64,000 nucleotides of DNA from Marsupella aquatica (GCA_973895155.1 OZ316896.1:15162684-15226683); one strand, 5' to 3'; numbered from the stretch's first letter, positions 40,088-64,000 are shown. Numbers and translations: made by a program. Notes: a model not told the origin generated them from the sequence alone.

Positions 40088-43000
40088 GCCCAGTCTGATT
40101 CTCAACTTGGGCTTTCCACTCCTTAAAAGTGGCAAAAACATCAAACTTATTGTGTAAAAAATATATCCACACATACCTTGAGTAATCGTCAATGAACGTG
40201 ACATAGTAAAACCGTCCAGAATGTGAGGGAGTAGGGGCTGGACCCCACACATCACTATGTACATACTCAAGTACCTCCTTGCTGGTGTGAGTTCCAACTC
40301 CGAAGGGTTTCTTGTGCTGCTTCCCTAGCACACAGTGCTCACAAAATTCTAACTTACAAGATAGCAAATTAGAAAGTAATCTTTTCTTCTGAAGAATAGC
40401 CAAACCTTTTTCACTCATGTGGCCCAAACGGAAGTGCCACAACCGGGCCGTCTCCTCATGAGATAAGGTTACATTGGCTTCATCACAAACTACACTGCCC
40501 TCCAAAACGTATAGATTGCTGTCTCTTTCCCTTCAATACAACTTTAGTACCAGTTGAAACCTGAAGGACACCATTAGCAGAGTTCCACTGATGGCCATTT
40601 GCTTCTAAAACTCCAAGTGAAATGAGATTTTTCATCATGCTGGGAATATGTCTCACATTCCTCAACGCTCTCACAGCACCATCAAACATATGAAATCTTA
40701 CAGATCCAAGTCCAACAACTTGACATGGGATTCCATTTCCCATCAACACTGACCCGTTGGAAACCATATAAGAACTGAAAAAATATCTCCTAGAGCAAAT
40801 GTGAAAAGTACATGCACTATCTAGAATCCAATCATCACTACCTGGATTTGACACTACGTTGAGAGCATAACCTTGACATCACAATATGTCATCATCATTG
40901 AGTAAATCTACCTCATGCGAGCTCGATGCCGCGTTAGCAGAGGCAGTAGGGACCTTTACTCGACAATCCCTTTTCATGTGGCCAGGCTTGCCACAATTCC
41001 AACATGCAAGAGGCTTCCTCTCTTGCGATTTCCCTCTGGATTTAGATCTCCCCCGTGATGTAGATCTAAACCTGTTCTGCCCATTCGTGTGCTGCGCTGC
41101 TCTTCCCCTGTTCACATTGAGCGTAGTGCCTGAAGAAGATGCTGTCTGTGATTGATCCAGCTTCTTCTGAGCATCATCAGATAGTAATGAGCTCACCACC
41201 TCATTATACGAAATGGACTTCAGATCTCTATACAAGAGCACCTGTTTCAAGCCCTGATATGACGGCGGTAAGGAGCTTAGCAGAAGCAAGGCCTTATCCT
41301 CATCTTCAACTCCTTTTCCCAGGTTTGACAGATCCACCGCAAGACTGTCAAACTCATCCAGGTGATCCTGCATCTTGCTCCCTTCCTTGAGCCTGAGGCT
41401 CATCAAGAGAGACTTCTTGTACAACCGGTCTGATCACCCTATTCATTAAAAGTGTATTTTATTTTGTTCACTTTTAGGCCTCTAAATGTTCACTTTTTGG
41501 TCTCTAAATGTACACTTTTTGAACCCAAAAGGTACACTATGGTATAATACTCTACACCTAAATGATCAATTGTAAACTTGAGGTGACAAAAATGATCTTG
41601 ACTAGAAGGAGTCTCATCCTAGTTCATTTACAAAAGATGAACCTGGTGGTACATGTGATGGCCATCAACTTTGTTTCTTGCCTAATTGTACACTTTTTGA
41701 AGGCCAAATGTACACTTTCTGTTGCCCAAATGTTCATAAATTGAATAATAATTCACTTTTAATGAATAGATTGATTCTGACGCATCTTCTCGGTAGTACT
41801 TCTCTTAGAGCCTTGAACAGTGATGCGCAATCCGCATAATCATCTAGCTGCTTGATGATGTGCGGCTTGAGATATAGCATCACTGCGTTGACAGCAATCA
41901 CCTGCTCTTGTCTCCACTATCTCACATAAATCTCCTCCTCTCCATCATATTTCTCTCGCGAAGAAAGCAGATGAGCTAAGCCCATGGCCCATAGAACACC
42001 ATTCACTTGCTTCTCCCACAACAAGTAATTAGTACGACCATCGTACTTCTCCACCTCAAACTTCACTCCTCCAAATCTAGCCATCTCCCTCTTCTTCCCT
42101 ACTACCGATAGCTCTGGTAGTAATACAGCTTCCTCCACTGCATGCCGCACCGGTGATTGTACCGGTGACTAGTTCCTCCTCAAACGGTAGCAACTCCTCC
42201 TCAGACTCACCGTCTGATCGGCGCAATCCTGAAGCTCCACCGATGCCAATTCTTCCAGTATCCTCCGAGTCACTCATATGAAACAATCACGAAAAAATGT
42301 CTTTTTTCAAAACTTCTCATAAAACTCAAAACTCAACACCGCCGCGTAGCCCACGAAGCTAGGAGTCCAATACTGAAAGCCGAAATCAAAATCAAAATTC
42401 GGCGGAAAAGTTATTCAAATTTTGGTCGGGGTGGGTAAAACCTTGGGAAACTCCCCCGTTTTGACCACCTCGGAGAATAACCAAAATACCTAGTACAACC
42501 CATCGTCGGAATCGCGATGCGATTGGTGCGCTGCGTTGCTAACTCCAGTGGCAACGTCCTCACCAAAAAGAACCAAAAAAGTTACTGTTTGGCGAACAGA
42601 ATCTTTGTCGGACAACCAAAAAACAGCTCTCTGTTTTTTGGGAATATTCCCGCACAGTCCGACAGGTCTCACAGGGGGCCGTTCCCCCTGTCCAAGTGGT
42701 TAAAATGGAGGGCGGCAGGTCCCGGCACAAGAGGAAACAAAAGGAAAAAGAAAATGCTTAAAATAGGGCCTTAAGGGGGTGCTAAAGCCCCTTATCACTA
42801 AATACAGTGTATAAAAAAAAACAAAGGCGCATCCAGGCGGGCCAGGGGGCATACAGGGTATCATGGCGAGTGTGTACAAAGGAAATAAGCAAGGGCAGGG
42901 CAAAAAGCGCCGTGCACCGGGGATGGACGCAGGCGGTAGGCGAGGGTTGCGGGAGGGCGAAAGGGAGGTGCTAGCGGCCGGCAGGGCGCATGAAGGTGGG

Positions 43001-44323
43001 CAGGGCCGCTGGGTCGTGAACGGGGTGTCGAAAGAGGGGGCGGGGTGCCACCGGAAGGGGCAGCAAGCCCCAGCAAGGCTCGGGCACGCAAAAAGCACCG
43101 GCCGGCGCTGCGTGCCGCGGCTGCGGCGACCCACTACTCTGGTGCGGGGGGAGAGTCTTACACGTAAAGGGGGGTGGCGGTAGTACGAGGGCCGTGAATG
43201 GGGTTACGGGGTGAGTATACACACCTCGTGTGTGTATACACACACCAAAACCCCTCTAAAAACCTAATTTTTTGCTACAAAAATTAGACGGCCAAGTTAC
43301 TTACAATGCCGCCACCATGTTGCTTGAGAGAAGTGATGACTGCCGACGGGAAAAGTTGTCGAATCACACCGGCGCCGTCTGCAACTCCAGCACTGTAAAA
43401 GCTTCCGCCTCGACGCCTTCACTCCGCGTCAAGTGCCAATCCCGGGCTCAAAACGACCGCCTCGCCGCGATCAAATTGTTGAGCCGTAGCACTTCGCGTT
43501 TCTTCCACCGAGTTGCACGTCACGAAGAGAAACCCGTTTCAGATGAGAACAAGCTCCATAGCTTGTGAAAAAACCTGAATGCCTCCGTCACTCGTCACGT
43601 CACACTCGGTAACAACTCGGCAATAGTCAAGCTACCAAAATGACCAGCTCGCTTCAACCTTCAACTTGAGCTAAAATGTGAGATCTCCCAAACACCGCAT
43701 GGCTCACACCGTTGAAAAATGCGATCTCTGGTCTCTCCCCCGAAAACCCGTTGAACACGGATAAAACCTGAACGATGCAAACTTTGATTCCTCCGCACCA
43801 TGGATACCGATCAGCGAGTTCTAACCACTGTTAGAAAGCCCTCTCACTAACCTATCCGCACAGCCACACACATTCGAGTTTCATGCGATGAAACTTTGAA
43901 TGTACCATCGACAATGAAAGCTGGAAAAAACCTGTCACGAAAAAATCTCGTCACCTCCCAGGCATGCTCTGATACCACTTGTTGAGCATAGACGACATTC
44001 GTAACGGCAAGCCCATGAACCATCCAACGCAGAAGAGTCGACACAGAGAGATACGTGGTTCACCTCCACATGAGGCTATGTCCACGGCAACACACAAGAG
44101 CTTTACTGCACTCTAGGCCGACCGGCCACACCAAGCATCCACAGCACAAGCTCTCCCTATCTCTCAACTAGCTCCGTAACAATGAGCCTAAGTTCCACCA
44201 GGGTCTGGCATCAGCCCTGGCTATATACACAACAGCACTACCGCTAACAATAGCTAAGTCCTAACCCGAGTTAGCCTAACTGTAGTTAGCTCATGAGTCA
44301 CAAGACTAGAGCAATATCTAACA
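40088..44323 (-). mobile_element. 3'-truncated Ty1/copia (Tnt1-like): 5' LTR, long leader, gag-protease-partial integrase
   Basis: LTR 43980-44323 (TG..CA), PBS tggtatcagagc at ~43966-43977. Motifs KFEVEKYDGRTNYLLW, CWNCGKPGHMKRDC, WILDSACTFH, LWHFRLGH, CEHC, VHSDVWGP. Breaks off after VENQTG; no RT or 3' LTR. Confidence 0.92.
41433..41775. mobile_element. 343-bp AT-rich TIR element (MITE) with 4-bp TSD in the copia gag
   Basis: 22-bp TIRs atcaccctattcattaaaagtg / atcaatctattcattaaaagtg, TSD tctg at 41429-41432 and 41776-41779. Excision restores gag ...EDASDRLYKKSLL. Confidence 0.88.
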
Positions 44324-45460
44324 GAGGTGAGAAAATATCTCAAGGTGAGGAAAATATCTCAAGGTGAAGAAAATATGTCAAGATGAGCAAAGATCTTGAG
44401 GTGAGAAGATCTTAATATGAAGAAAAGATGTCAAGATGAGAAAATATTTGAAATTATTTTTAAAAAATTAGATTTATTTATATATGAATAAATTTAATTA
44501 AAATTTGATTAATTTTTTCATTGTGGCAGATATGGGAAGGTTAAAGGGTAGCTTGGGCAGGAACTTATTTTTAGAAGGGGTGTATGGATAGATCTGACAC
44601 TGTGGAAAAAATTATGTTTTGATGAACATTCAAGATTGATTGTCACTTTTTTTAGGTTGTAAAGGGAGAGGCATGATTATAGTGGTACATGGTAAAGGGA
44701 GTTCTCCTTGATACTCTTGCATAGAGACCCTCATTATTTTCTTTGTATTATTAAATTCATTTTTTGCTTGGAAACATTGCTCTCCATTTTCATTCACATA
44801 GGAAATCATTCTTTCATGTTTTTCATTTTTGGGATATGACTACTATAAAAAAAGTAACATTTTATTATAGATTTTGACATTATCCTTGTCACGTAACCTA
44901 TTGTGTTTAATTAACCTATTTAAATTAAATTAATATAATTATTATATTTTACAATATTATAATACTTGCAATAATACATAGTATCATATATATTATGTAT
45001 TTTTATATTTCATGTATATGGGTTAGGAACCTCCTTGATACTCATGCATGTACATTCTCTCTCTTGTTTTGTGTGCCCCATTGGCTCTCTCCTTTTGCGT
45101 CTCCCATTTGATTCTCCTCTTGTTTAGAATGCATTTATTACTTTTTTGGTGCACACTAAATTTAATGTAACCTTTATTCCTTCTCTTTGACATGATTAAT
45201 GCTTTTTGGACTCTGCAAATTTGAATGACGACCACTTCATAAAAAGGCGCAACCACTAGAAGGAAATCGGGATTTTATCACTACCTAATTCACTTGTTTC
45301 AGAGTGATAACGGACAATTTACAACTCAATGGTTTGAGTGCACTAATGTCAGTCGCTTTAGACAACTAGTCGTATTGAGCATGAAGTCGTTTATAACAAG
45401 TACTCAAAATGTATGAGTGGTTTATGTCACCATCGGTTTCAAACCCAACGGTCTTAAATA

Positions 45461-45997
45461 ACTAGAAAAATAACAGTTATTTAAATTTTTCCCAAAACAA
45501 CTACTATGGTGACTTTTTTTGACAAATGATACTTAGACATGTGGCGGTCTCCACAATCATTGGGGGTGACATTTGCCAAAAGTCAATTGTGGTCAATGCA
45601 CCTTGAACCTCAAACAACTTCTTTCATGACTAGAATTCAAGTAGAAACTATATAGCCCTTGCCACTATATGACTAGATTTTGAGTCTTAAAGATACTTTG
45701 TGTCAAACTTTTAATACTAGTTATATGACTAGAAAAATAACAATTATTAAATTTTGCCCAAAACGATTACTATGGTGACTTTTTTTGACAAATGATACCT
45801 AAACATGTGGCGGTCTCCAGAATCATTGGGGGTGACAATTGCCAAAAGTCAATTGTGATCAATGCACCTGAACCTCAAATAACTTATTTCATGACTAGAA
45901 TTCAAGTAGAAACTATATAGCCCTTGCCACTATATGACTAGATTTTGAGTCTTAAAGATACTTTGTGTCAACTTTTAATACTAGTTATATGACTAGA
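45461..45997. repeat. ~268-bp near-identical tandem duplication in the left subterminal region
   Basis: actagaaaaataaca...tactatggtgac...ctagttatatg unit at 45461 and 45728. Confidence 0.9.
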
Positions 45998-46703: not shown

Positions 46704-49676
46704 CTACTTCCTCATTAACTTCTGCCTCCACAAAAATGGGTGCCCCTTCACATGTTTGAGGGCTACCAAGCCTTCTGGGTGCTTTTCTTGGAGAGGTGCA
46801 TCTCCATTCAAAATAGAAACAGCTTTGACAATCAAGAAGCCAGTAGGAACTGGGTTGTCATAATATCGATCAAGTCCACATACTCCATCGATTCTGGCAA
46901 TAGCAATCACCTGCTGATCCACTGGTGATTTCAATTTCACCATGTCTCCTACTTTAAACTGTCACACATCAACAACATAACACAGCCATTTCATTACTTA
47001 GACTTGTTAATGATAAGTTACAGCAAATAAACGAATAGGACATGTCTTGAAAGCAATCATTTGCTTTTGCTCACCTTCAAGACAAAAGGTGAAGGGATCG
47101 ACTTTGAAAACTCTGTAACAATGGCTTCTTCAGATGACTTTGTCAAAACAACTTCAGGTGTCAAAGCTTCTATTATCTCCTGCAAAACAGATTAGGGTGA
47201 GACAACTTACATAAGCATGCCCTACCAGGTTCACATTACAAATTCATGGGATAATGAACATATTAATAGTACAAAGTTTAGGGTTTAGATGGTATTCCAA
47301 CCTTATCTTTGCCTGCTTGATCATGCTGCGCAGGCGAACTGTATACCACCTCTGTTTCTTCATTGATCTCTTGCTTCACAATCACTGGGTCATAATTGTA
47401 TTCCACAGCAGCATTGAGATCAATCCCCTGATCATCTTCAACTGCCCATTAACATTTCAAGACATTAGAAAACATTCACTAATCCAAGTCATGCATGCTT
47501 GATTACACATACTTTAACTGTCCTCTGTAAAGAACATACCTTCTTTGGTCAAGTCCACCAAAAAGTCTAGTTTCACAGCTGAAGTACTACGGCCTGAATG
47601 ACTTTTTGGAACTGAACTCATTCGTGAGGGCATTGAAGACTATCCCGGCCCAACTGGGATAGTTCTGGTTTCTTCCACATCTTGACTTAGGCTAGGTTTT
47701 ATCAAAACAGTTAACATTTGCTTAAACCCAACACTCATCACTGTACTTATTGCATTCACAATTATACTCAACATATGCTCATCACGTCCTTCCTCGTCTC
47801 CCATCATAGCCCTAGAACCTGGTGTCTGCAACCATTGAACAATCATACAAAAGTTAGTGGATATCACCTAGACTTGGCAATTTGGAAATCAAAAATTGGA
47901 CTTGTGAACTAATACTCACAATTGACTTTCTGCCTCTCCGATGAGATGGTGTGGTCTGTCCTGTGACAGATCTCACACTTGATACTCCAAATCTATCATC
48001 TTTTGAGCGTAGCTCAGACAGAGGTGGACTTTCCCCTCTTTTTCTCTTCTGAGCAATGAAACCAAACAATACATATTAGAATGAAACTTCTTGCTTCTTT
48101 GCATACCAATTGCTAAAACAAAGGAAGACACATGCTGTAAGCCTACTTGTTGTTTACAAACATTCATAATAACTGTAAATGAATCTTGTATACTTACAAA
48201 GTCAGACTCCTTCCCACGGTAGCCACCTCGTCCAACCCTTGATGGATTAATGACTTTAGATCTTGCATACTTCATCTTGTCAATGCTAGACATCCCTTCT
48301 GGAGACAGCCACCACTCACACAATGCCTTCCAATGTTCAGGCTTCACATTCTCAGGGGGCTTCTTGTCCAAGCGTCTTCCACCTTCCTGAAAATGTTTGT
48401 GGAGTCTTGCTCGCTGTGCTTTCATTACTGCTGAACAATGAGACCTGAACTTCTTCATTGACAGAGTCCCCTGTACATACTCCCAATCGTTCTCCAACAC
48501 AGCATAAACATGAAGAAGAACCCCTGAGTCTTGCTTCTTAATCTCACGGATAGAAGGATTCAGTTTACCCATACACACAGCACGAAGATCATCTCCCCAA
48601 CGTGCCCGATATGGATCATTGGGATCAACATCATTGTTCCAAATCTGCACACAATGCATCATAAGAGACCAATAACAGAGGACAAACAATAAATCACAAG
48701 CATGATCTTTCACAAGCAACATACAGTGATTGCAGCTTTCTTCATGCCCAACTTGCGACACTCGCTTGTGTTCTCTTCCCATTGTTTCTTTGCAGCACGA
48801 GATGATTGTCGTACGTGTGTCTGTTCTGATCTTTCTATGACAATTCCATCATCCAGATCATGAGCAGATGCTCTAGGCAGGGTGTCACTACCACAACCAA
48901 CCAAAGAGATTCTGTTAGCAAGTCAAACATTAATGTAACTTGTGACAATCAATCTGCAACTGTGAGAATCTCTGAACTCAGGATTCACTTGGCAAGTCAA
49001 AAACAAGTTCATGGCAAGTGAGGTAATGAATAAATTACTTACACACACTCACTTCCTTTGTCCTAGGATCCACATAATATTTAAGCCCTGACTTTCGGGG
49101 AGCCTGAGGATAACAGTGTGCACATTCAAGTAATTAGTAATAGTAGCACCAGATTGAGATATACAGAAATTGGACAATTAATGCAATTAGCTTCAAGTGA
49201 AGTAGAAAATGACAGTGAGTCTTCTCTTACCTTACGTAGCTCTTGAACACCATCTGATTCGTGATCATCACTTAAACCTGCCCCATAATTTGTGTCAGCT
49301 GATTTTTCAGACTCATCACTCCCACTGTTGTCACTCTCCATGATTTTCTCCAGGTGCCTGCCAAGTAATCGTGAACTCCTACGCTTTGCTATAGACGGCT
49401 GATTCTGTTCAGTCTTCTTTGACAACTTAGATAGACGCTTGACCCTTGCCTCACCCTGTAAACTGCAATCACCCTGGCAATGTCATGAGTGTGAACCATT
49501 AATTAGTAATAAAGTCAGGGCATAAATTCAAAACTATATAGGGATAGAGTACATACTTTAAATCTCTTGCAGCAGTTCCTACGAACTGGTCAAGTATAGC
49601 TTGGTTGGCTGCTATGTTCTTATTCCTCTGTGCCTCATAGGCATTCTCAGAACCTTTCACCCCAGACCGATCATGC
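46704..49676 (-). CDS. Multi-exon CACTA TnpA/Ptta-like protein; exon boundaries approximate
   Basis: N-terminal AYEAQRNKNIAANQAIL, RRSSRL, and a Transposase_24-like block PPENVKPEHWKALCEWW...ARSKVINPSRVGRGGY. C-terminal exon VKLKSPVDQQVIAIARI...HPFLW. Many GT-AG introns. Confidence 0.7.
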
Positions 49677-49751
49677 ATTTCAATTCAAAACTGCATAAAA
49701 AACACTATCACCAAAGAGCAATCAGTACTTCCTGCCCCAAGAGGCACATTC

Positions 49752-52700
49752 TCACTCTTCATCTGAATCTTCTTCACCTTCCCAGACATCATCATCATCA
49801 CTATCACTTCTTGTCAACACTGCCATCTCCTGAAAAACTACAATTTCTCCTTCATCCAAGGGCAGTCGTCTGTTAGCTGCTGCAACAAGCTCAGCCTCAA
49901 CAGCCTCATGACGATCCACAAGATCATTAAACTCAAGGTCATTTATACCCTCAACAACTCGTCGAGACCTCCCTTCCTTATGGAGGACATGTCTCCAAGA
50001 GGCCCTGGCTGTGTTTGGGTAAAAGAAAACCTGCTCAATCTGACTGGGCAAGACATAATCTAATTTCTCAGCTGAGGGATAAGGCATATTAAAATTAGCA
50101 AGCCATAGGCCAGTCTCATCATGTTTCATTGATGGATTAGACCTCTCCTCTCCCCACTTAGACCGCACCCACTTTGCCTTCAAGATTATGGCTGGTTCAG
50201 AATGTAACAGAGGTCCATAGTCAAGCACAAGTATCTGTGTCATAACCCCCACATATGTAAGCTTGGCCAAATTCACTCCAGTTTCTTCCCTGATCTGCTC
50301 ATGGAAAGTTGTGGCCACCCCTGAATCGAATGTAGCATATCCTTGACAATCAGTGTCCCTGAGAGTGGACATCTCACGCCATTCACCATTCCTATCTTTG
50401 CAGCGCATCACTCTGTAATGGTTCCCAAAAGCCTTCATTGAATTGTAAGACAAAGCCTTCTGGCTTGGTGGAAAAGAAATTGCAGTCAACAACAACTTGT
50501 CCTCATTGTCATCCAGGTTAGCCTTGTGTATTGTATCCCTGAACCACACTCCAAAAGGAATGGAAGCAAATTCAGCAGGACAGGCCATTGCTTGACGTCT
50601 GCCTCGTCGTCGTTCTGCATTATTTTGTCTTACAACAGCTTCCCTTTCTATCCTTCGCTCCTCCTCTTCTGACTCATACAACCTTCCAAGCAAGCAAAGA
50701 ACAATGTCAGATATCATAAAAGAAATACTGTCTTATTGTGAAAGCGCATTTAGAACTACATTACTGAACACTGAGACAGCCATAAACAAAATGAGCTTAT
50801 CATGTACCTGAGCCATGGTGCAACCTGTACATGGTTCTGTAGGTAATAGGTGTGGGCAGCATCTCGATCAGCAACAGTTAGAGACAGTTTACTTGAGGCC
50901 CCTTCCAGGACCACACCTTTAACCCCTGCCTCTTCTTCAGAGTCCCAGACCCGCTGCCAAGTTACTTTGCACTGAACCATATACTCTGTGAGAAATCCCA
51001 ATGCCTCCTCTAGGATATAACCCTCAGCCATAGATGCCTCTGGTCGTGCCCTATTTCTTACAAAAACCCTTTAGGTTTTTCAGGTATCTCTCGATTGGAT
51101 ACATCCACCGTTGTGATACAGGTCCACATATATCTAGCTCTTCCACTATATGCACCATCAAATGTGTCATGACATCAAAAAATGAAGCTGGAAAATGCAT
51201 TTCCAGAGCACACAAAGTATGTGCCACATCTGTCATCAGTTCATCCTTAGTGCTAGGGTCCCAGACCTTACAGCAAATTTTACGCCACACACGACACACA
51301 CTAATGATAGCCATTCGAGGTCCTGTTGCTATCAAGTCCTTCAATGCCAAGGGAAGTATCTGCTGCATTTGGCAATGGTAGTCATGAGACTTGAGACCAG
51401 CCAACTTATTGCTGGCTCTCACACACTTTGCCAATGAGCTACCAAAATCTGTGGGAACTTTCAAGTTCTTCAAAGTGCCCAGAAACTTCTCCAACTCTGG
51501 TTTGCTCATCACATAGGGCGCCTTGGGCTTCACAAAGTGATCCTTCTTATTGTTTGGATGAGGCTTCATCCATAGCTGCTCGTGAATGCCTTCAGCCTCC
51601 ATATCATTCCGCACAGCAATGGTATCCTTCTTCCCAGAAGTAGTGTGAATCAAATTCTGAGCAATGTTCTTCTCTGTGTGCATGGGATCCAGCACATGGT
51701 TGATCAGAAGTTTCTGTATGCAAACAACAAAAAGCAAATCAGTCCAACTGCAAATTGACATGTGTGTACAATGCTGGTTGCAATATCTTCAAGTAAAAAA
51801 CGTGAATGCAAGTGTGATTTTACTCACCGACCAGTATGGCAGCTTTGCAAGCCCTTGTGTCCTCTTCACCCCATGAAGCTTCGAAGGACAGTTCTTGCTT
51901 CCTTGTTTGGCCCCAGGTGTTTTCAAGTACTCTTCCACCTCAGCAGCAAAGGCTAATTTTTGCTCACAAGTCATCCTTGGGGGAGGCCCCTGTGGCTCGC
52001 ACTCCCCATCAAATTTTGCTGCATAACTTTGGGAGCGGTACTTATGGTTCTCCTCCAACCACCTTCTACTCCCCAGAAATACATTTTTGGATAGAGCAGC
52101 AGACCTTCTGCAGCTCACATTGGGACCACACACAATGCATCCATGATATCCTTTTGTGACTTGACCCGATATGAGACCCAAAGCTGGATAGTCATTCACT
52201 GTCCACAATAGAATGGCCCGCAGATTGAACCACTTATTCAGGCCAGGCCTATCAAGTGAATCAAAGCATGGAACTCCCTCCCAGAGCTCCAAAAGCTCCT
52301 CCAACAATGGAGCCATGTAAATGTCAATGTTGCGGTCAGTCACTGAATCAGGCCCAGGGATCAGCAAAGATAACATAATGAAGAACTTCTTGGTGGACAA
52401 CCAAGGGGGCAAATTGTAATTCAACAATACCACAGGCCACGTAGAATGCTTGAGGTTGTTTTCCCCAAAGGGATTCACACCATCCAGAGCCAATCCAAGG
52501 TGTACATTGCGAGGCTCTGCTTCAAATGTTGGATCAATTGTTGTATCAATCTCCTTTCATGCCCTAGAATCTGCAACATGCCGGACCTTTCCATCTGTGC
52601 TTTTACTGTCCTTATGCCATGTCATCAACTCTGAAATAGCCTTGCACCTGTACATTCGTTTCAACCTGGGTATGAGGGGGAAATGTCGAAGGACTTTCAT

Positions 52701-53593
52701 AGGTGCTTTGATTGCCCAACCTGCTTATACCTAGGCTTTTTGCACAGTGGACACTCATCGCAATCAGCATGCTCCTTTCTAAATAGGACACATCCATCCT
52801 CACAAGCATGAATTTTGACATAATCCAAGCCAACATGACTGATTAGCTTCTTGCATGCATATAGGTTTTTAGGCAGCAGATTCTTAGCAGGCATCAACTG
52901 TTTCCCCATCAACGAAAGCAGTTCATCAACTCCAGAGTTGGTGAAACCATGATTATGGCATGTGTTTAGAAATGTCAACACAAATGACAATTGGGAAGTA
53001 GTGGACCCCTCATACAAAGGGGCACACGCCTCTTCAAATGCTCGCATCATCTTCTCCTCTGCCTGTTGGTCCCAAATCTGAGATGTTGCTTCTCCAGATG
53101 TACTGTCCGCCTCCAGAAGATCATCCATGTTGAAGAGACCCTCTTCACTTTCCTGCAAAGTGGGCTCCTCTGCAGTGGTTTCTTGGACGGGTTCACTGGC
53201 ACTAGCAGTTTCACTTGGTATTGCTAGGTCCTCTAGTATCCCAGGGATATCTATGCCACAATCCATATCATTGGCAAGTTCCTCTGCACATCTTGCATTG
53301 TCCACAGGGCCCTCAAATGCACCATCCCCCTCCATGCATCGTGCATTCCACTCATCATCAGAAGAGTCACAGTCCTCTCCCCACCAATACCTTTGCGATG
53401 GGTGGCGAGAATTCTGAATGAGGTGCTTTTTAACAGTCCCTAGACTAACACGATTACCCCTACAGTTGCAAATGTAGCAAGGACATTTTATCTTTGTCAT
53501 CCCAGCAGCTCTACAGGCTGCAGTCTGTCGACGCCACAACTTGTCATCCCTCCTATTCAAGTCATCTTGACTACCACGAAAGTTCCTCAACAT
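49752..53593 (-). pseudogene. CACTA TnpD/Tnp2 transposase, 3 exons (~53593-51828, 51715-50808, 50682-49752), with lesions
   Basis: KIKCPCYIC, YVKIHACEDGCVLF, RHFPLIPRL, LALDGVNPF, YNLPPW, NDYPALG, DPMHTEKN, GLKSHDYH, FFDVMTHL, GPV..RWMYPIERY, MAEGY. Frameshifts at ~52700 and ~51055 and a TGG>TGA stop at ~52558. Confidence 0.95.
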
Positions 53594-53845
53594 TGTTTCA
53601 GGCACTTCAAGTCAATCCAATCAATGTCTTCCACTCAATTTGCCAAAATGCAGAGGACCCACGTACCTTGCAACCTCTGCAAGCTCTCTGGATACTGCAA
53701 TCCTCCACTCTAATGGTACCAGCACTGGACTCCACACCTCTAGGCTACTCTGCATGTACATCCATGACCATATCAGAATACAATGGTGTGTAGTCATAGA
53801 AACCCACTCCACTAGAGTGATATCAGATCTGTGAATCTTATCAGA

Positions 53846-54370
53846 TCAGTACAAATACCACTCCTGTGCTCGATTATAGTCAACCCTCAGGTACTCAGGC
53901 AAGTACATTAAGTCATCTAAGTCTAACCCAAGATCATGCCATGGTGGTCTACGATCTGTGCCTACAAGTAGTAGTTTCAATGCCTTCCATTGTGGGGACA
54001 TGGCTACCAAGTCCCTCCATTGGGTACTAATGAGTCGATATTGGCTAATGTCCTGCGCTGATGACATGGAAAGAACCCTAGGCCATACATTTGTGACTAC
54101 TAAATCATATGGCAAAACATGTAGCAAACTACTACATTCCTCATCATCCTCTTCACACCCGGCTTCACACTCATCTGCCGAAAAGTAAACCTCCTCCTCA
54201 TCTGCCTTACAATACTGTACAACAGATTCAAGGTTGACAATGGTTCTGCCAGGTGGGGGTACAAATTGTCGGATTACCAAACCAACCAGCCAAACCACCA
54301 CAAAATACATCCATGTAGCCACCCGTATGAGGAGTCTACATATGGTGTGGCGGTCTGGAATAAATGACAT
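53846..54370 (-). CDS. CACTA cargo ORF: hydrophobic/TM segment, acidic FFAT-like motif and F-box-like domain (174 aa)
   Basis: WMYFVVVWLVGLVI; EEEVYFSADE; LHVLPYDLVVTNVWPRV...YRLISTQWRDLV. Uninterrupted ATG-started ORF. Confidence 0.6.
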   Translation of the reverse strand: MSFIPDRHTICRLLIRVATWMYFVVVWLVGLVIRQFVPPPGRTIVNLESVVQYCKADEEEVYFSADECEAGCEEDDEECSSLLHVLPYDLVVTNVWPRVLSMSSAQDISQYRLISTQWRDLVAMSPQWKALKLLLVGTDRRPPWHDLGLDLDDLMYLPEYLRVDYNRAQEWYLY

Positions 54371-54996
54371 ACCGAGTGTAGTGTTTCACCTCCAACATTC
54401 ACTGGTGAGAACCTACAACATGGACATGACAATAAGCTCAGCTCCCTCATAATTTGTACTTGCCACTCCATAGTTTTCTCTTTTGAGTTCATACTGTGAA
54501 TTTTTATTTGCAGAAAAGTTTTACGTTTTATGTCTTTGTTTCATGTGTTTAGGATGCTTCTTTCAAACCTGAAACTCTATTGCTACCCACAGACAGCAGG
54601 TTGAAGAAAATACCCCATTGACAATGCCCCATCCATGACACCCAACAAACAAGACAACCAGATAAACACTGGGTCCAAACAATTCAATCACATCCACAGT
54701 ATTGACATCCATAAACATCAACTAGGATGGACCTCATACTGGTATACAAAATAATTACCAAATAAATAAGTAGAGTTTGAGTACTTTGATTTTCTAGACA
54801 GCTGGCCTTAGTCAATTAAACCCAAAGCATTGTCTCCATGCTCGTGCTAACCATTCACACAGTGAATAAAATGTGTGAACAAAATGTGTAAACAAAATGT
54901 GTGATGCGGACAAAACGTCATTGTTCCATTAACTAACTAAGTGTATCGATGTCTATAGTAGTATTGATGTATTTGAACCAAAATGGACCACGTCAA

Positions 54997-55650
54997 TCAA
55001 AGCCAGGAGATGTGATCATGAGCTGCTGTGCCTAGAGCAGGGTCAATAGGATGGTCAGGACAGTAAATCATCCAACGTCCCTGGTCATGTGCAGTATGAT
55101 GCCAGGGCACTCTGTCCGGTGCAAAACCTTGACGCTGGCTCTCGGCTAGGCAAGTACGATGCCAAGTTTTGGGACATCTCAAACACTGCACGGCCTCTGC
55201 CAGATGAGGGTCACGATGGTCTTGCTGGCATGCAACACATGTATGGATGGGGCAAGACTCCACATCAAGTGGCAAGCATCCATGACAATAAAAACGAACA
55301 CAATATGGCTGGGGGCACTGCCTGGCTACAGCAGAGACAATGCCACACTGAAAACACCTGTATGTCTTATCCTTACACTCTGGACAATACCAAGGATCAT
55401 CATCCTTGCCTGGTGCAATAAATACGGCAGGGCACGTGCCGACAACTTCACCAACTTTGGAAACATGGTGGAAGTGCCGATGGCAAGCCCCATCACACAT
55501 GGCCAGATCTCCATGCCAGTCACAAATGCCACAAAGCTGGGGACTACACTGACGTTTCTCAATGTCTGACCACAATTCAATCATCAACACATCTTCCTCC
55601 TTTCTCGTTCGAGTATCATTCTTTCTGGCTTTATGCTTGGTCCTAGCCAT
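54997..55650 (-). CDS. CACTA cargo ORF: H3-tail-like N-terminus plus EDM2-type PHD finger cassette (217 aa)
   Basis: MARTKHKARK; CGICDWHGDLAMCDGACHRHFH..WYCPECKDKTYRCFQC..CPIHTCVAC..CLRCPKTWHRTCL..IYCPDHPIDPALGTAAHDHI. Collinear with the EDM2 PHD region as I recall it. Confidence 0.85.
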   Translation of the reverse strand: MARTKHKARKNDTRTRKEEDVLMIELWSDIEKRQCSPQLCGICDWHGDLAMCDGACHRHFHHVSKVGEVVGTCPAVFIAPGKDDDPWYCPECKDKTYRCFQCGIVSAVARQCPQPYCVRFYCHGCLPLDVESCPIHTCVACQQDHRDPHLAEAVQCLRCPKTWHRTCLAESQRQGFAPDRVPWHHTAHDQGRWMIYCPDHPIDPALGTAAHDHISWL

Positions 55651-56481
55651 TAAGACCACTGGACATTCATGAACAAGAAAACTTGAAGAGTTATTACACT
55701 GCTAAATTGGCTGTCATAAAACACGTACTACCACTTGCATATTGCAATCCAATATGGGGCCAGGATGCAGAGGACTCACCAACTGTACTCAACCAAGAGG
55801 AAGGCACTGAAATTTGGAGATTGTCTTGATCGGTTTCAGATGTCGATCTCAATCCCCTCTCACGTCACAAGATGTAAAACAAGGATTCATAATCTGCAAC
55901 AACACAAATGTGACACAAAATAGTCATTGGACTACTGTATACATGCATCTGATGTTTTGTTTCAAACTCCTTCTGTAACTAAAGGTTGCCTCAGACTCAT
56001 TCAATACTATTCCAATTATGCAAAGGACAATAGGCTTGCCATTGAACTCAGAAAAATAATTGCATAGACACTCTTCAACTTTCTTCATTCACTGTACCCG
56101 ATCTAGAGCCATAAGGCATATGTGCGAGGGGGGAGTGGGAGTCATTGACAGAGACTTTAACTATTGGATTCAACTATCAGTTAACAGTAGATTGTGGGCC
56201 TTCTGGAACAGAGTCTTGAACAGAGATGTTGAGTGGACTGGTGACATCTTAGATTAAAATGTTGTGCTTAGTAGATAGGATTTTTGCAATATACTTCAAA
56301 ACTTTAATTCCACTGAGGTGTTCAAACCCTCAATCCAAAATTGTACAAATATAGAAAAAGTCAGAGCAGTTCAAGTTATTTCTCAGTGTTTAAGTTACTA
56401 TTTCATCCAAAAATATGCCTTATCTCATTGCATCCTGGTACGTGCATATTGTGTTAGAATTCCTGCAGCTGTAAACTAACT

Positions 56482-56934
56482 TCAAATCAAACATGATGTG
56501 TTCGAGAAACCCCCAATAGCGGGGTTGGGCAGGGCTGGACACCCAAGATCACTATCCACACCATTCAACAATGCAAAGTGATTCCAAAGGATGCACATCC
56601 TCCTACTTTGTTTAGCGGCTTTGTCAGCACCGACCAGGGTTTTTGGGTTGACCACCCTACAAGCAACGCAGTCATACTGGCAAGAATGGATACATCCATG
56701 CGCTAGGATGGCCTTGACGTGTGGCACTTTGCCAATAAGTGACACATACACCACGGATGTGGGAAAGGGTAATGCCACAGGTGGAGGCTGGCTGTAGTCA
56801 TTCTGGACTACAACTGGATAACGAAAATACCATGCAGAGTGGGCTGGCCATGTGCCACGTCTGACAAACTCCAGACGCAATCTCTCTGCGGTGCCTGCAA
56901 GACTCTGAGAATGAGCGCTGCGAGTCCTCACCAT
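56482..56934 (-). CDS. CACTA cargo ORF, 150 aa, unknown function, with a Cys/His cluster
   Basis: Intact ORF with good start context (gctATGG), preceded by a tttcag acceptor. HGCIHSCQYDCVAC motif. No family recognised. Confidence 0.45.
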   Translation of the reverse strand: MVRTRSAHSQSLAGTAERLRLEFVRRGTWPAHSAWYFRYPVVVQNDYSQPPPVALPFPTSVVYVSLIGKVPHVKAILAHGCIHSCQYDCVACRVVNPKTLVGADKAAKQSRRMCILWNHFALLNGVDSDLGCPALPNPAIGGFSNTSCLI

Positions 56935-58957
56935 AGCTTTTCTCGATCATGTCCTGTGCTGCTTTGCTCACGTCCACAGCAAGTCCACTCGCTCCTGAAA
57001 CTATAAGACCATGGTTAAAAAACTGGAGATTTCATCACTGACCCAGAATTTCAGTTTATATACAGGGATGAATCCCTGAACGTTTTAAAGGACAAGCTCA
57101 GACAGGCTCAAGACTTTCCCAATGCCAACAGTTGGTCATTCTATGTACCCCAAACACAAACAAGACTCCATTAACCATAATAGAGTACCAAATAGGATTC
57201 CAAGATTCATAAAAGAGAAGCAACAGCAGGAGACAAGATGAAGAAACTCAAAACATACCATTGACCATACCAGAGTTTTCAATCGGACGGCAAGACCGAT
57301 AGTAGGCCTAGCATTGATCAAGACAGACAAAACTCTGATACTAGTATAGCAAGTAAAGAGCTTCTTCTCTGCAACAAAACCAGTTTGTCTCTATTTCAAC
57401 TGTGAACCATTAGTCTCTATTTAAACAGTTAACCCGGGACGTGGAGAGGACAAGACTATTAAATGACAAGACTATTAAATGACAAGACTAAAGAGTATTT
57501 CATTCTTCCATTCTGTACTCATCTATAGCAAACAGCAAGCAATATGTGACCAGTATGCTTCTGTAAGCCTTACAGACCAGCAATATGTGACCTTAAAGAG
57601 AGGCTTTTGACAGGAATTCCGGTGAACACGGCCATCCACCAACGAGGGATAGGGGTAGTCCATACAATGAGCAAAACTGCAGAGAAGAAGGCAATGACAC
57701 GGATGATGGGAATCCAAAATAGCCAATAGGTACAGAGGATGAGATTCTGAAGCCCAAGCAACAAAGCGGAGTAGCTAGCAACCTAAACCTTGCTCTCGAC
57801 CGCCACTCAAACTTGCAGCTGATCGAATCCTGACTCTCAAAGTTGTAGCTGAGTCTTGCCTCTCAAACTTGCAGTGGCCCTCAAACTCGTACCTCACTCC
57901 CAACTCTCAAATTTGCACCTCAATCCCAGCTCTCAAACCTAGCAAGTCGATCGCTGATCACTCAAACACCTATATAACAAATTCTAATGAAGTTCTAGCT
58001 AATAAAACTCACAGCAACTTGCAGCGCAAGTGAACTCACCGTCGTAGCAGTTGGCAGGCGTCAATTGAGTTCACCTCAAATCTTGCAGCATTACAAGTGT
58101 AGCCCAACTCAAAGGTTGCAACAGAATTTTAACTCACTGTTACTCAAACTTGATCAGCAGCAGCAAGTCACTTCTTGAAACTGATCTTGCTGCACCTCCT
58201 AAAACTGCAAGTCGCATGTCAAGTCGTCTGAGCCTCAAACTGATGTTGCTGCGCCTCCTACAACTAATGTTGTTGCGGCTCCTCAAACTGCAAGTCGCAT
58301 CTCAGATGCCCAAAGCAGCAATGTAAGCGCAGCCCAAACAGTCAAACTCAATTGGAGACAACAACTTACCAGCTCAATCGGAGACAGCAACTTACCAGCT
58401 CAATCAGATGCAACAACAGCATGCGCACATCCCAGACTCAGTTGCAATTGATAACCCTTGCACAACCTCCTCAGTGAGAGAATATGCAAGAAGCTCCCTA
58501 ATATAGCTAAGGATCGAAGGTTTTTGCAATCAACGGAAGTGAGAGGAGTTACCGTAAGTCTTCACAAAATGAACCCAAGTTGGGGCTGGCTGCCGCTCGC
58601 TCAATGATAGCAAGTACAGTTGGGCAGCGATTGGAGGAGCCGAAGCCCGATGGATCCCGCAGCCGTGACCTCGTGCAGCTAGGGCAGCGATTGGAGAGGC
58701 GAAGCCCGATGAGTTCATCAGCAAAAGAAAGAATTCCGCAGCGGTGAGCTCACAGTCTCACATTCTCACAAGGCAACAGACCACATTCAGACCTAGACTG
58801 CCTGCAGATCCAACTCCCGTTTGGAAAAAGTGTTACCCAGGTTGAAGCTCAACTCAATGAAGTACCAGCTCACAGTTGGCAGACCCTAAATCGCAGCTTG
58901 CAATGATTGAGAACTCTATCAAAGCCCGTAGCTCGCTCCAACAGCTTGTAGCTGGAG

Positions 58958-59206
58958 CCGCACAACACAACACTCCTGCGCAGCCCTCCCGCAGCGCTCC
59001 GCAAAGCACTCCCGCAGCACACTGCACAACACAACACTCCTGCGCAAATCTCCGTGACCCACTGCCGAGAAGAATGATAATGGACCCAGCTCAATCGGAT
59101 AACAGTGAGCTAGCTTGGACGCGCAGCTCCGCACAGCACAACACTCCTGCATAGCCCTCCCTCAGCGCTCTGCAAAGCACTCCCGCAGCACACTACACAA
59201 CACTCC
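58958..59206. repeat. CpG-rich imperfect direct repeats (~171-bp period) in the putative CACTA leader
   Basis: ccgcaca.cacaacactcctgc..agccctccc.cagcgctc.gcaaagcactcccgcagcacact x2. Confidence 0.8.
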
Positions 59207-59280
59207 CACAGCTCCACGAGCCCTGATCTGATTGCAAACTCTTTGGGCAAAACAGAAGCGCAACTCTCGGGTATGCAACT

Positions 59281-59296
59281 CCCCTTTTTATAAGGC
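59281..59296 (-). promoter_or_regulatory. Putative TATA box of the CACTA transcription unit
   Basis: Minus strand gccttataaaaagggg at the boundary between the AT-rich upstream DNA and the GC-rich leader. Confidence 0.5.
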
Positions 59297-61099
59297 AAGT
59301 TTTTAATTCCTTATAATGGCCTTATATCCAATTGACCATCTTAGATTTCGTTTTAGTCTACTAAAGTCTTGTACCTCTGAACTCAAGGAATCCAAAAATG
59401 TAACTTAAAAAAAAAACCAAACATGTTTTGATGTACAAAAAATTGATCAAAACCAAGTTATATGGGTTTTTTTTAATACAGGGGTCTACAGCAAAACTAG
59501 CCAGCTTTTTAGGATTTTTATTAAAATTTTAAAAATATTTTAATAAAAATTACAACATGTATAGGAATATTTTTTAATTTCATATGGAAAATGAAGAAAA
59601 CCAAACCTTTTATATGACTTGAAAATTTTTAAAAGTGGAAAACCCAGGTTTTTTCAAATTTTAATTATTTTGTATAGCCAACTTTTTAGTCCATATAAAA
59701 ATGTAGACCCCTGTCTATTATATAAGACTTGCGTACCCGGGGCGCAACTTTGCTAAACCCGGGGCTAAACCCCTCGACTCCCTCGCCCTAAACGCTTTGT
59801 GGCAGACACACAAACACAACATTCAACGTTGAGTCTCGATAGTTTGTGGGAAAAATAAAACTTGACTCACAGGCCTGCGGGTGCAAAGGGTGCAAAGAGC
59901 CGTTTGGCGCGAACCTAACTGACATGTCAGCCGGCCCCTAGAGTGATCTCAGCCGTCCGGATGAAATGAGACTGCCTTGAGTGATCTCAACCATCAATGA
60001 GGCTGAATTTGATGTTAAGCCAAGGCCCCCAATCCCTCTACTTCAAGTGTCTCAATTACACTCCAAGCATTGTCTAACCCCACAAAATAAGTGCTAAGTC
60101 ATGACAACTCTGCCCTCTCAATGTATAGCAAAAAACCAATAATTTCCAATATGCCACCAACAATATTAGGTGGTATAATTAGGTACTAGTAAGTATTGTC
60201 ACATGCACTAGACTTTCTTTGTGTGAAAAATGACATCATCCATATGGACTTTTTTGTGTCATTAATGAAATGATCTAATACGAGTCTGACTAATATAATG
60301 CCAATTCAAACATTTGTCCTAAACCCATATTTTATTTTATAGAGTACCCAATGAGCTATCACTTTTTGCCTATTACCAATTTTAATACCCTAGTACTCCT
60401 TTAAAGTGTGTTACAAATCACACAAAGCTTGAGAAGAAATGTAGGTGGTGCCATGTCACCAAACAATACTTTTTCTATGACACTCAGTTGAGAGTTACAT
60501 AAACCATCCGGAAACCCCTCGCTTCTACGTGCCCTAAACCCTGTACTTCATTTAAATTGCTATCATATTCTCTGGATATATTATTATCCCTTGGCACCAT
60601 TCACTTAACTTCTCTGGTAATTTAATTATCCACTCCGACCTTCAATCACTATGTTTTTTGTCAATGTTAAGTGGTATATATGTAGTCTTGCAGGTATAAT
60701 CCTTGGGAACCACCACATCCAAAGTGGTTTTGGCCAATCCTAAAAAACACCCCACTACTTACTTGATTGCAAGTTGTTAAAAAGAAACTATAATTATTGT
60801 ATCACAAAAATGGGGAACCAAACCACCACATTCAAAGTGCTTTTGCCAGCCCTCAAAAACCCACTACCTCTTTGCCAGTGGTTTCAGCAGTCTATCACTA
60901 AAATGTTGGTGACATTGTTACTGCACTGTGGTGAGAATCCGGTATGACATGATCTGTAGTGGTATTTACAAGATCTCTGTCCCTTACTTGATTGTCAGTT
61001 ATTTGTAAATTACAACATTATGTCATTTATCACTCAAGACTAGGTGATGGTACTAACACTAGAATACATGTGAGAGTTTGGAACCACATTGTTATTGAA

Positions 61100-63180
61100 A
61101 GTGTTTACACACAATTTACCCCATTCCACTTACTTCTCCACTAAAATAACGGTGATATTCTAAGTGGAATTTCCCTACACCCTCAAACTACCTCTTTTGC
61201 AGTGGTTTGGGAATTATGGCCACCCTACGACTACCACTACATCAGAAGTTCTTTGGAGGACTGCGTCATGTACCACATAAGTTTGAGTGAAAGTTTTAGT
61301 CACAAGAAATGAGGGCTTTGAAGCATATTATTTTGAGTGCTTTGGGGGGTGACAACCTTACAAAGAGAATATGTAGGCCATCTAGCTTTAGGCAAGTCTC
61401 GGAGGGCCATCAATAAAGGAGGAGGATTGGGCCCGCCGCCATAACAATTCCTCCGTGTTAGCCCCCCCATGGTGAAGCCGTGGGACACCCCCATCATGTG
61501 CGCCAACAAGTTATAGCAACGACAATGAGGTTGTGACGCATAAATTGCCAAGGTGGAGAGATTTGAGGCACCCAAGTGATGCAACATCATGAACTCCACA
61601 CAAATCACTCCAAGACTCTACGGAATTACAAATATGGGGCTTATGTGATGCATCCACACAATTCACTCCTTTTAGCACTAGTTCATGGCAAGTGGTGGCA
61701 CCAATGTGTGTTGCATGACTCAAATACGGGTGCAATTTGAACCCTAAAACCATCTCATTTGTAGTGGTTTGGGAACAACAATCACCCTCAAACTACCACT
61801 TCATGAGAAGTTGTTTTGAGAATGGATGATGTACCACCCCAACCTGAGTAACAATGTTAGTCGCTAGAAATGCGGGCTTTGAAGAACAGAGTTTTTAGTG
61901 ATTTGGGGAGTGACAAACTTACAAGGGATAATGAGAAGTGGATCCACCTCGCGACAATTGTCATAGGGCCGCGATTAAAGGAGGAGGGTTGGGCTGACGC
62001 CATAACAATTCCTCCATGTTAGCCCCCCAATGGTGAGGCCATGTGACACCCCCATCATGTGTGCCAACTAGTTATAGCAACGACAATGAGGTTGTGACGC
62101 ATAAATTGCCAAGGTGGAGAGATTTGAGGTACACAAGTGATGCAACATCATGAACTCCACACAAATCACTCCAAAACTCTACAGAATTATAAATATGGAG
62201 CTTATGTGATGCGTCTACACAATTCACTCCTTTTAGCACTAGTTCATGGCAAGTGGTGGCACCAATGTGTGTTGCATGACTCAAATACGGGTGCAATTTG
62301 AAGTCGCCAGAAGGCGAGGGCCCAAAACTACCTTATGTCAAGTGGTTTGGGCTGGTACTTACAAATGCACTTCATTGCAAGTGTTCATACCCAATTTACT
62401 TCTCAACTCAAATAACGGTGGTATCTTGAGTCGCATTTCCCCTAAACACTAAAACTACCTCATTTGTAGTGGTTTGGGAACAACAATCACTCTTAGACTA
62501 CCACTTCATGAGAAGTTGTTTTGAGGGATACATGATGTACCACCCCAACCTGAGTGACACTGTTAGTCGCTAGAAATGCGGGCTTTGAAGAACAGAGTTT
62601 TTAGTGATTGGGGAGTGACAAACTTACAATGGATAATGAGAAGTGGATCCACGTTGCCGCAATTCTCGGAGGGCCAGGATTAAAGGAGGAGCGTTGGGCC
62701 CACCGCCATAACAATTCCTCCTTGTTAGCCCCCCCCATGGTGAAGCCATGGGACACCCCCATCACGTGTGCCAACTAGTTATAGCAACTACAATGAGGTT
62801 GTGACGCATAAATTGCCAAGGTGGAGAGATTTGAGGCACCCAAGTGTTGCAACATCATGAACTCCACACAAATCACTCCAAGACTCTACGGAATTACAAA
62901 TATGGGGCTTATGTGATGCATCCACACAATTCACTCCTTTTAGCACTAGTTCATGGCAAGTGGTCGCACCAATGTGTGCCTCATCACTCAAATATGGGTG
63001 CAATTTGTAGTGGCAAGAAAATGAAAGCCCGAAAGGACCTTATGTTAAGTGGTTTGGGCTCGTATTTACCAATGCACTTGATTGGAAGTTCAAACACATA
63101 ACTTTCCTAAGTTAAAACATGGTGGTATTTCAAGTGACAGGTGCCCAAAACCCTCAAAGCACCTGTTGTGTAGTGGTTTG
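61100..63180. repeat. Three long imperfect tandem units (~560-710 bp) in the CACTA right arm
   Basis: Core atagcaac.acaatgaggttgtgacgcataaattgcc at ~61513, 62074 and 62781. Recurrent gtagtggttt/aaactacc motifs continue to 64000. Confidence 0.9.
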
Positions 63181-64000
63181 GGTACAATTTGTAAATAAAA
63201 AAATTGTTTGTCGCTATAATTCCGGCGGCATGCATATTGTGACTGAAAATGTGTGTTGATAATGACACCATGGGGAGAGGTTTTGGACATCACAAAATAA
63301 TCTGTTTAATTTTTAGTCATTTATCAAAACTGTTTTGACACTCTAATGTTGGTGGCATTTGCAGTGGCAAAATGTATTTAAAGAATGACATTACTTGAAT
63401 AAGAATGGAAAATGATCTACTTTATTTCAAGTCATTTGCAAGGTCCTGCATTGACACTCTACTCTTAGTGGTATTTGGAGTCACTAAAATGTGCGAAGAG
63501 AATGACATTCTTTAGAGTGATTTTGGACTAAGGAGGATGTGGCACTTGGTTTGAAGTTGCATCAAATAATATTTATTGGACTCTAATATTAATGATATTT
63601 GTAGTCAGACAATTTGTGATAATAATGACTTTATTAAAGAAATTTTGTACATTGAGAATTAATTCACTCAATCTTAAGTTGTTTGTAAGAATTTCCTTGT
63701 CACTAAAATATTTTAAATAATTTTGCCAAAATTCATTTGTGACTCCACTATTGGTGATATTTACAGTAACAAAAGGTGTGCTCACAAATGACATTATTTC
63801 AAGTAATTAAGATCACTTGGAAAAGCTTCACTTGATTGGGAGTTGATTGAAAAAGCACCTTTACCATTCAAATATTGGTGGTACTTGTATTTGTAGTGGT
63901 TTCGGTCAGTAGTAAAATCTTAGTTGAAAATAGAGTTGTAAACATCAACGGTGGAGTGAACGGTGGATTGTAGTGATTTGTAAATTTGTGTAATATACAA

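Follow-up and report, generated by a model that had tools for sequence, protein, structure and literature searches.

A CACTA transposon of Marsupella aquatica with an EDM2-type PHD protein and a likely F-box gene ahead of its transposase genes, and a possible single-promoter splicing scheme

Introduction

A 64,000-nucleotide (nt) stretch of the Marsupella aquatica genome (GCA_973895155.1 OZ316896.1:15162684-15226683), referred to here in its whole length as the window, holds a multi-copy transposon of the plant CACTA/EnSpm superfamily whose genes lie on the minus strand. The locus raises the question of what this element carries between its presumed promoter and its TnpD-type transposase gene, and how a transposon would express several genes from such a position. 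We found three intronless minus-strand open reading frames (ORFs) of 150, 217 and 174 amino acids (aa) in this interval, and consider it very probable that the cassette they form is a conserved, functional feature of the transposon family. For the locus as a whole we lean, if only slightly, towards a reading in which TnpD and TnpA are preceded by an orphan ORF, a gene for an EDM2-type triple-PHD protein and a probable F-box gene, and one upstream promoter serves them all, with separate mRNAs produced through alternative splicing and the choice of 3′ end.

Results and Discussion

Gene content of the cassette

The three ORFs, in the order in which they would be transcribed, are:

56482..56934, minus strand: ORF150, intronless, preceded by an acceptor at 56995 and overlapped by an upstream ORF of 50 aa that starts at 56950
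54997..55650, minus strand: stand-alone EDM2-type triple-PHD protein of 217 aa, whose N-terminal tail is basic and disordered and resembles residues 1-9 of histone H3
53846..54370, minus strand: F-box-like protein of 174 aa, with a hydrophobic N-terminal stretch, an acidic linker, a motif at residues 89-129 and a short conserved C-terminus

The original prediction for this DNA had claimed at least three intact, intronless ORFs on the transposase strand, and three are present (56934-56482, 55650-54997 and 54370-53846). Openness beyond chance holds for the PHD and F-box-like ORFs, both of which have homologs, and only moderately for ORF150 (P ~0.01, no homolog). The same prediction had placed a chromatin effector and a ubiquitin effector beside the transposase. 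The first was borne out by the EDM2-type PHD cassette, while the second stands on weaker ground with an F-box match under the Pfam cut-off.

Four of the 49 candidates examined for the PHD ORF were homologous to it, all from other assemblies, with 46-79% identity and shared start and end points. A profile made from the PHD homologs matched 425 proteins at E<=0.001, many of them 1,000-1,600 aa long and matched near residues 220-430, and the clusters looked up for ten profile matches comprised five ENHANCED DOWNY MILDEW 2 (EDM2) entries, three liverwort PHD proteins, one hypothetical protein and one unnamed. Aligned to Arabidopsis EDM2, the ORF corresponds to residues 224-432 (29% identity, E 4e-23), so that the homology spans the whole triple-PHD unit. 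Like host EDM2 (PMC7529245, PMC3632883), the cargo protein has all of the triple-PHD cassette, beginning at the first Cys pair and reaching the C-terminal His-containing motif. Unlike host EDM2, it measures 217 aa as opposed to ~1,300, is intronless, begins with a basic H3-like N-terminus, sits in a transposon and has neither the N-terminal DNMT1-RFD domain nor the long C-terminal region of long EDM2 proteins. With PHD fingers only in its 217 aa, it is an EDM2-derived module and not an EDM2.

A FastTree tree was calculated from 145 of 156 sequences, 11 being left out for short cover. In one clade (Shimodaira–Hasegawa support 0.96) it united ten proteins of 166-304 aa, the window PHD protein included, and placed them beside a group of EDM2-like paralogs from the liverworts Marchantia, Riccia and Calypogeia, the nearest host proteins. 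This stand-alone clade is diverse and deep and lies apart from host EDM2; because the tree is midpoint-rooted and has long branches, it does not establish the donor of the PHD module. Further short EDM2-PHD proteins are found elsewhere in the tree (P0047 from Marchantia, 280 aa, and P0038, P0041, P0053, P0123, P0044 and P0079), and these may be fragments or independent stand-alone forms.

The 174-aa ORF had three homologs, also from other assemblies, among 26 candidates, with 61-68% identity and a common end point. Three of the four members matched the Pfam F-box family below its curated cut-off (15.1 bits against 20.5, best E 0.0011), the best PDB match was likewise an F-box protein (E 0.4), and judged by its sequence the ORF is likely an F-box gene. 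Only ~45 residues follow the F-box-like motif, and the hydrophobic stretch at residues 15-33 is weaker in the homologs. We also considered whether the stop at 53846 was premature, with the ORF running on to 53621, and rejected this as three homologs stop at the same place.

ORF150 is the least certain gene of the cassette, and its coding status is unproven. It had no homolog among 23 candidates, no Pfam match and no Atlas match, its length was reached in ~1% of 2000 shuffles, and its GC content is flat by codon position.

Two small observations concern the segments just ahead of these genes. In the N-terminal extensions of P0002 and P0005 the translation just above the starts is conserved with the window, with C-P-V ahead of the PHD ATG (across the acceptor position) and N-x-G-G ahead of the F-box ATG, a weak hint that the 5′ segments could be constrained. 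At 55664-55667, just ahead of the PHD acceptor, all four runs of DNA-like contigs (described below) are 4 nt shorter than the window copy, which has a small duplication there; the acceptor AG is not among the listed differences.

Splice sites and promoter signals

The signals upstream of the ORFs are as follows:

59285..59292, minus strand: TATA-like box, presumed main promoter
58958..59203, minus strand: GC-rich duplicated units of 75 nt, 92% alike, just past the presumed start site
58364..58395, minus strand: two G/GTAAGT donors, copies of one 26-nt tandem unit
58034..58039, minus strand: top-scoring leader donor, G/GTGAGT
57055..57062, minus strand: second TATA-like box, TATATAAA, located 128 nt ahead of the start codon of ORF150

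A TATA box had been proposed at about 59290, and we located it at 59292. At 0.99 and 0.78, the observed/expected CpG ratios (CpG o/e) of the two bins flanking it are the highest in the element, while the value around the TnpD start is 0.27. The proposed leader donors also exist as G/GTRAGT motifs at 58395, 58369 and 58039, with the qualification that the first two belong to one duplicated 26-nt unit. Against 1000 dinucleotide shuffles, three such motifs have P=0.008 and two independent ones P=0.067. Six ATGs follow the TATA box before 58395 and nine before 58039, so a single-exon leader running from the TATA box to either donor and joined to each ORF would hold 6-9 upstream ATGs.

The acceptors proposed ahead of the ORFs fared less well. 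AGs do end at 56995, 55659, 54413 and 53829, but a model made from the element's own introns ranks them 20, 24, 22 and 33 of 405 AGs, which gives them low evidential weight. A YAG lies within 65 nt of 281 of the 332 minus-strand ATGs, an equally good acceptor is found within that distance for 22-44% of the region's 126 ATGs, and for three of the four acceptors the next ATG downstream differs from the ORF's own.

The donors within the cassette stand out more clearly. We trained a donor model on eight frame-checked introns of the element and scored the 297 GTs in 57300-53500 with it. The top four, at 57258, 55779, 54372 and 53666, scored 4.5-5.4, the next 2.8, and they precede the ATGs of ORF150, PHD, F-box and TnpD by 324, 129, 2 and 73 nt, respectively. 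The same top-four set was returned in six of eight leave-one-out runs. Random placement gave p 0.002 for a 330-nt window and 0.0045 for a 130-nt window (three of the four donors), these windows having been picked after the data were seen. Joined to nearby acceptors, the donors define the following predicted exons and introns:

57141..57258, minus strand: predicted 118-nt intron above ORF150, with one of the four best donors of 297 and an acceptor ranked 2-4 of 405
55780..55893, minus strand: predicted 114-nt non-coding exon, acceptor 55894 ranked 1 of 405, donor 55779 with a U1 count of 7/8
55659..55779, minus strand: predicted 121-nt intron ending 9 nt ahead of the PHD ATG
54373..54412, minus strand: predicted exon of 40 nt between acceptor 54413 and donor 54372, the latter directly ahead of the F-box ATG
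53667..53828, minus strand: predicted exon of 162 nt with five ATGs, between acceptor 53829 and donor 53666, the best of the 297

Acceptor 53829 lies 17 nt past the F-box stop. Between it and the TnpD ATG, 236 nt further on, there are five ATGs, one of which opens a 58-aa ORF (53797-53621) that crosses donor 53666. Its openness is the sole support for this ORF, which may act as an upstream ORF limiting transposase translation.

One promoter or several

That each ATG has a top-scoring donor just above it, and that neither room nor a CpG signal exists for a separate promoter of TnpD or TnpA, speaks for one upstream promoter and a ladder of short exons. We put splicing from a single promoter at somewhat better than an even chance. 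In the common-leader scheme inferred here, the transcript would carry a chain of short non-coding exons (one ending at 57258, then 55893-55780, 54412-54373 and 53828-53667), with each ORF placed in the intron that follows. Use of a donor would skip its ORF, while reading through the donor, or splicing to a local acceptor, combined with a proximal poly(A) site would produce that ORF's mRNA. Upstream ATGs would hold transposase output low. The arrangement would be the TnpD/TnpA logic of Spm repeated.

In maize En/Spm, one gene gives both TnpA and TnpD through alternative splicing (PMC13547354; bioRxiv 10.64898/2026.08.24.746577). The window element resembles it in its CACTA end, in a TnpD followed by a multi-exon TnpA-like gene, and in having a strong donor close above TnpD and a strong acceptor close below it. 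It differs from maize En/Spm in having three added intronless ORFs above TnpD, each with a similar donor-before-ATG layout, and in that splicing here is predicted. The vif and vpr genes of human immunodeficiency virus type 1 (PMC4163160), whose start codons lie in an intron bordering short non-coding exons, offer, from an unrelated element, the nearest mechanistic analogy for the predicted 40- and 162-nt exons.

Several results weigh against this reading. The acceptors first named for it hold only moderate ranks, 20-33 of 405. The TnpD exons contain donors that score as high (2-3 in 3.6 kb), so donor density is not raised in the cassette and position alone stands out, and a model-free U1 count backs only 55779 and 53666 (7/8). 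The second TATA box at 57062 would suit a separate start. Four unlabelled DNA-like contig sets (X1-X4), found with the cassette region, add two further points; their word depth is no copy count. In X3 and X4 the leader at 57181-58821 has a depth ~4- to 40-fold below the next lower bin, so the leader donors may not be family-wide, and a minus-strand GT-AG joint was seen in 0 of the 15 shown (of 128) in the four sets. The F-box assignment falls under the curated cut-off. The copy in the window is dead, with four lesions, all in TnpD/TnpA, and the absence of lesions from the 1.6 kb of cargo has no significance by itself (~1.3 expected, an estimate). Finally, several EN/SPM families of Arabidopsis (SPM2/5/6/9) have separate head-to-tail genes with their own starts (PMC13547354; bioRxiv 10.64898/2026.08.24.746577).

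These Arabidopsis families also speak for the strongest alternative, a functional cassette in which each gene, or some of them, has its own promoter and an ordinary intron in its 5′ untranslated region (UTR), arranged head to tail. Under this alternative the TATA box at 57062, near the edge of the well-covered region, is a candidate promoter element, the predicted 118- and 121-nt introns before ORF150 and PHD resemble 5′-UTR introns, and the 57100 and 55000 bins, with a CpG o/e of 0.56-0.60, are in keeping with local starts. However, the exon preceding the PHD intron begins at acceptor 55894, the best-ranked of all, which implies a donor further upstream, and neither the interval from the F-box stop to the TnpD unit nor that from the TnpD stop to TnpA, both low in CpG, has space for a promoter. 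We consider separate promoters unlikely, though the most serious competitor to a single-promoter splicing scheme.

Possible functions of the cassette

Host EDM2 occupies H3K9me2 chromatin where transposons supply proximal poly(A) sites and keeps these sites from being used (PMC7529245); on transposons within introns, transcription can then continue past such sites. By homology, the cargo PHD protein would bind H3 tails, likely with H3K9me2 as does host EDM2. Since it lacks the other ~1,000 EDM2 residues, its proposed role is that of a small protein which, on the element's own chromatin, either serves the host ASI1-AIPP1-EDM2 system as an adaptor or competes with it. Transcription that must pass three potential gene ends to reach the transposase would gain from an EDM2-like activity, or from blocking it, and the likely purpose of the protein would be to secure full-length, transposase-reaching transcripts through the element's own heterochromatin. 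The F-box-like protein may engage SKP1 as an adaptor or decoy. A role of the cassette in silencing or RNA processing is a tentative proposal, a little short of an even chance.

A different function for the PHD protein is suggested by its fold and tail. It may be a targeting or decoy factor and not act in RNA processing, either steering insertion through H3 marks or using its H3-like tail to titrate readers and writers of H3K4/K9. This concerns protein function only and fits either expression scheme. The AlphaFold model (mean predicted local distance difference test score, pLDDT, 86) has its best fold matches among H3-binding PZP and NSD PHD domains, only one of them at E<=0.001. We compared the tail with the histone H3 1-9 motif, taking the best position ahead of the first finger in each protein. 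Residues 2-10 of the window protein match at 7/9 positions, as does P0004 (46% identical), and nine more of the 15 stand-alone proteins match at 4-5 (six score 5 and three score 4). The other four score 3 or less, at least one of them being a fragment; a PDB search with residues 1-22 gave no match; and the tail is undocked in the model, with pLDDT below 50 for residues 6-24. Judged from sequence, the tail may be a mimic or a nuclear localisation signal. We regard the targeting or decoy function as rather unlikely.

A bolder combination would make this an old bryophyte-type CACTA lineage that has made a captured EDM2 PHD module with an H3-mimic tail into its own accessory factor, expressed from a retrovirus-like leader ladder with every gene placed in an intron, and in which the PHD factor sets the element's own splice and poly(A) choice and H3K9me2 reading turns on the full-length transposase mRNA. 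We offer it as speculation that is probably wrong in at least some part.

Relation to known transposon systems

EnSpm multi-gene cassettes (Plavaka), anti-silencing accessory proteins (VANDAL, Spm) and captured fragments (Pack-CACTA) are already known. The closest parallel is red-algal Plavaka, an EnSpm group (bioRxiv 10.1101/2025.02.11.637652) that is likewise high-copy and large with a fixed three-gene cassette including chromatin-related proteins. Its PAG1-3 are a DNA methylase/SET protein, a 2-oxoglutarate oxygenase and a protein with no assigned role, whereas here the cargo is a land-plant EDM2 reader module and an F-box-like protein. VANC of the VANDAL elements (Mutator superfamily; PMC10398659) is also a transposon-encoded accessory protein, and like it the PHD cargo plausibly acts on the element's own chromatin. 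Unlike the present element, VANDAL belongs to another superfamily, and VANC binds DNA motifs while the PHD cargo appears from its sequence to be a histone-reader homolog; no VANC-type domain was matched by Pfam in the window cargo. Pack-CACTA elements and Tgm-Express1 (PMC1947982, PMC13317346) are similar as CACTA elements with host-derived sequence, but they hold indiscriminately spliced gene fragments in non-autonomous elements, and here whole conserved ORFs lie in a transposase-coding family.

We did not find a CACTA-borne EDM2/PHD or F-box gene described in the literature searched, a scope that leaves supplements and Repbase outside. PHD and F-box have 0 occurrences in the main texts of PMC13547354, PMC13317346, PMC12730594, bioRxiv 10.64898/2026.08.24.746577 and bioRxiv 10.1101/2025.02.11.637652, and such domains may occur among the 962 Spm proteins from Repbase in the 2026 preprint. 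If the cassette alone holds, it is an accessory-gene set not found described for land-plant CACTA elements in that literature. If the exon ladder is true as well, the two-product scheme of Spm would be widened to five products from one promoter. A transposon with an EDM2 reader module would have its own handle on the host system for reading silenced chromatin, and thereby a new counter-silencing tool that works via RNA processing or histone-mark reading and not via DNA demethylation (VANC, TnpA). Transposon exploitation of the ASI1-AIPP1-EDM2 pathway would then become directly testable.

Family status of the cassette

About half of the sampled words are present in the four contig sets, and cover of the cassette resembles that of the transposase in all of them. 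Seven contigs listed for X3 reach from 47891 to 55814 with a word depth of 2309-2703, two overlapping ones among them link the TnpD 5′ end to the F-box ORF, and a piece of the window copy's leader at 57530-57988 has a depth of 117. The 46-50 kb part, which lay outside the query, is covered like the cassette. With cassette and transposase equally covered, this part included, the cassette travels with the transposase, while the leader at 57181-58821 varies among copies. The view of the cassette as something other than randomly decayed sequence agrees with this read cover and with the conserved homologs.

Copies are ~1-3% apart and hence young. That the cassette is passive cargo, unused retro-copied host fragments hitch-hiking in a newly amplified family with splice-like sites due to chance, would fit such young copies (in which intact ORFs need not mean selection), ORF150 without a homolog, the commonness of YAGs near ATGs and the indiscriminate splicing of captured fragments in Tgm-Express1 (PMC1947982), but we find it improbable given that the PHD (46-79%) and F-box-like (61-68%) ORFs are intact with fixed ends, that the stand-alone PHD clade is deep and apart from host EDM2, and that a manual reading of loose contig ends in X1-X3 points to divergent paralogs of the PHD and F-box genes.

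These loose contig ends lie at 55028, 55073 and 53880, the PHD paralogs among them being P0004-like, and they suggest several cassette-bearing families per genome. Two metagenome scans, one with the PHD alignment and one with a TnpD segment, returned no related locus.

Setting and ends of the element

Below the cassette the element continues with its transposase genes and one terminus:

49752..53593, minus strand: TnpD-type transposase with Transposase_21 and DUF4218, two frame-checked introns, frameshifts near 52700 and 51062 and a stop near 52558
46704..49678, minus strand: multi-exon TnpA-like gene with a strong acceptor at 49691 and a frameshift at 48878; frames checked to 47640, last exons assigned by eye
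45254..45258, plus strand: CACTA terminus, the 3′ end of the element (CACTAG at 45254), inserted in another repeat

TnpD matched Transposase_21 at E 5.6e-38 and DUF4218 at E 4.7e-22, and the TnpA-like gene matched Transposase_24 at E 0.077, below the cut-off. The reading frame is kept across six TnpA-like and two TnpD introns, and the checked introns are 80-155 nt long. Acceptor 49691 lies 61 nt past the TnpD stop and 13 nt ahead of the TnpA ATG.

The terminus at 45254 is supported by diverging contig ends at 45253/45254 (20 and 40 contigs in X2). No partner CACTA end was found in 57000-64000 (best match 10/14, not CACTA), and the second end probably lies beyond the window. Duplicated units occur at 45481-45976 and 61170-63029. 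The latter array consists of a 560-700-nt unit in 3-4 copies that are up to 90-96% alike and have many CACTAC motifs, and is probably the element's 5′ subterminal array, in which case the element would be longer than 18.7 kb and run past the window end.

Elsewhere in the window, 9711-13141 on the minus strand holds ORFs resembling those of a non-long terminal repeat (LTR) retrotransposon, with reverse-transcriptase motifs and an apparent restriction-like endonuclease (by eye). Two decayed Copia-type LTR retrotransposons with gag, integrase and reverse-transcriptase fragments, also recognised by eye, lie at 31566-37800 on the plus strand and ~40000-44330 on the minus strand, and the repeats of the first are 5.98 kb apart.

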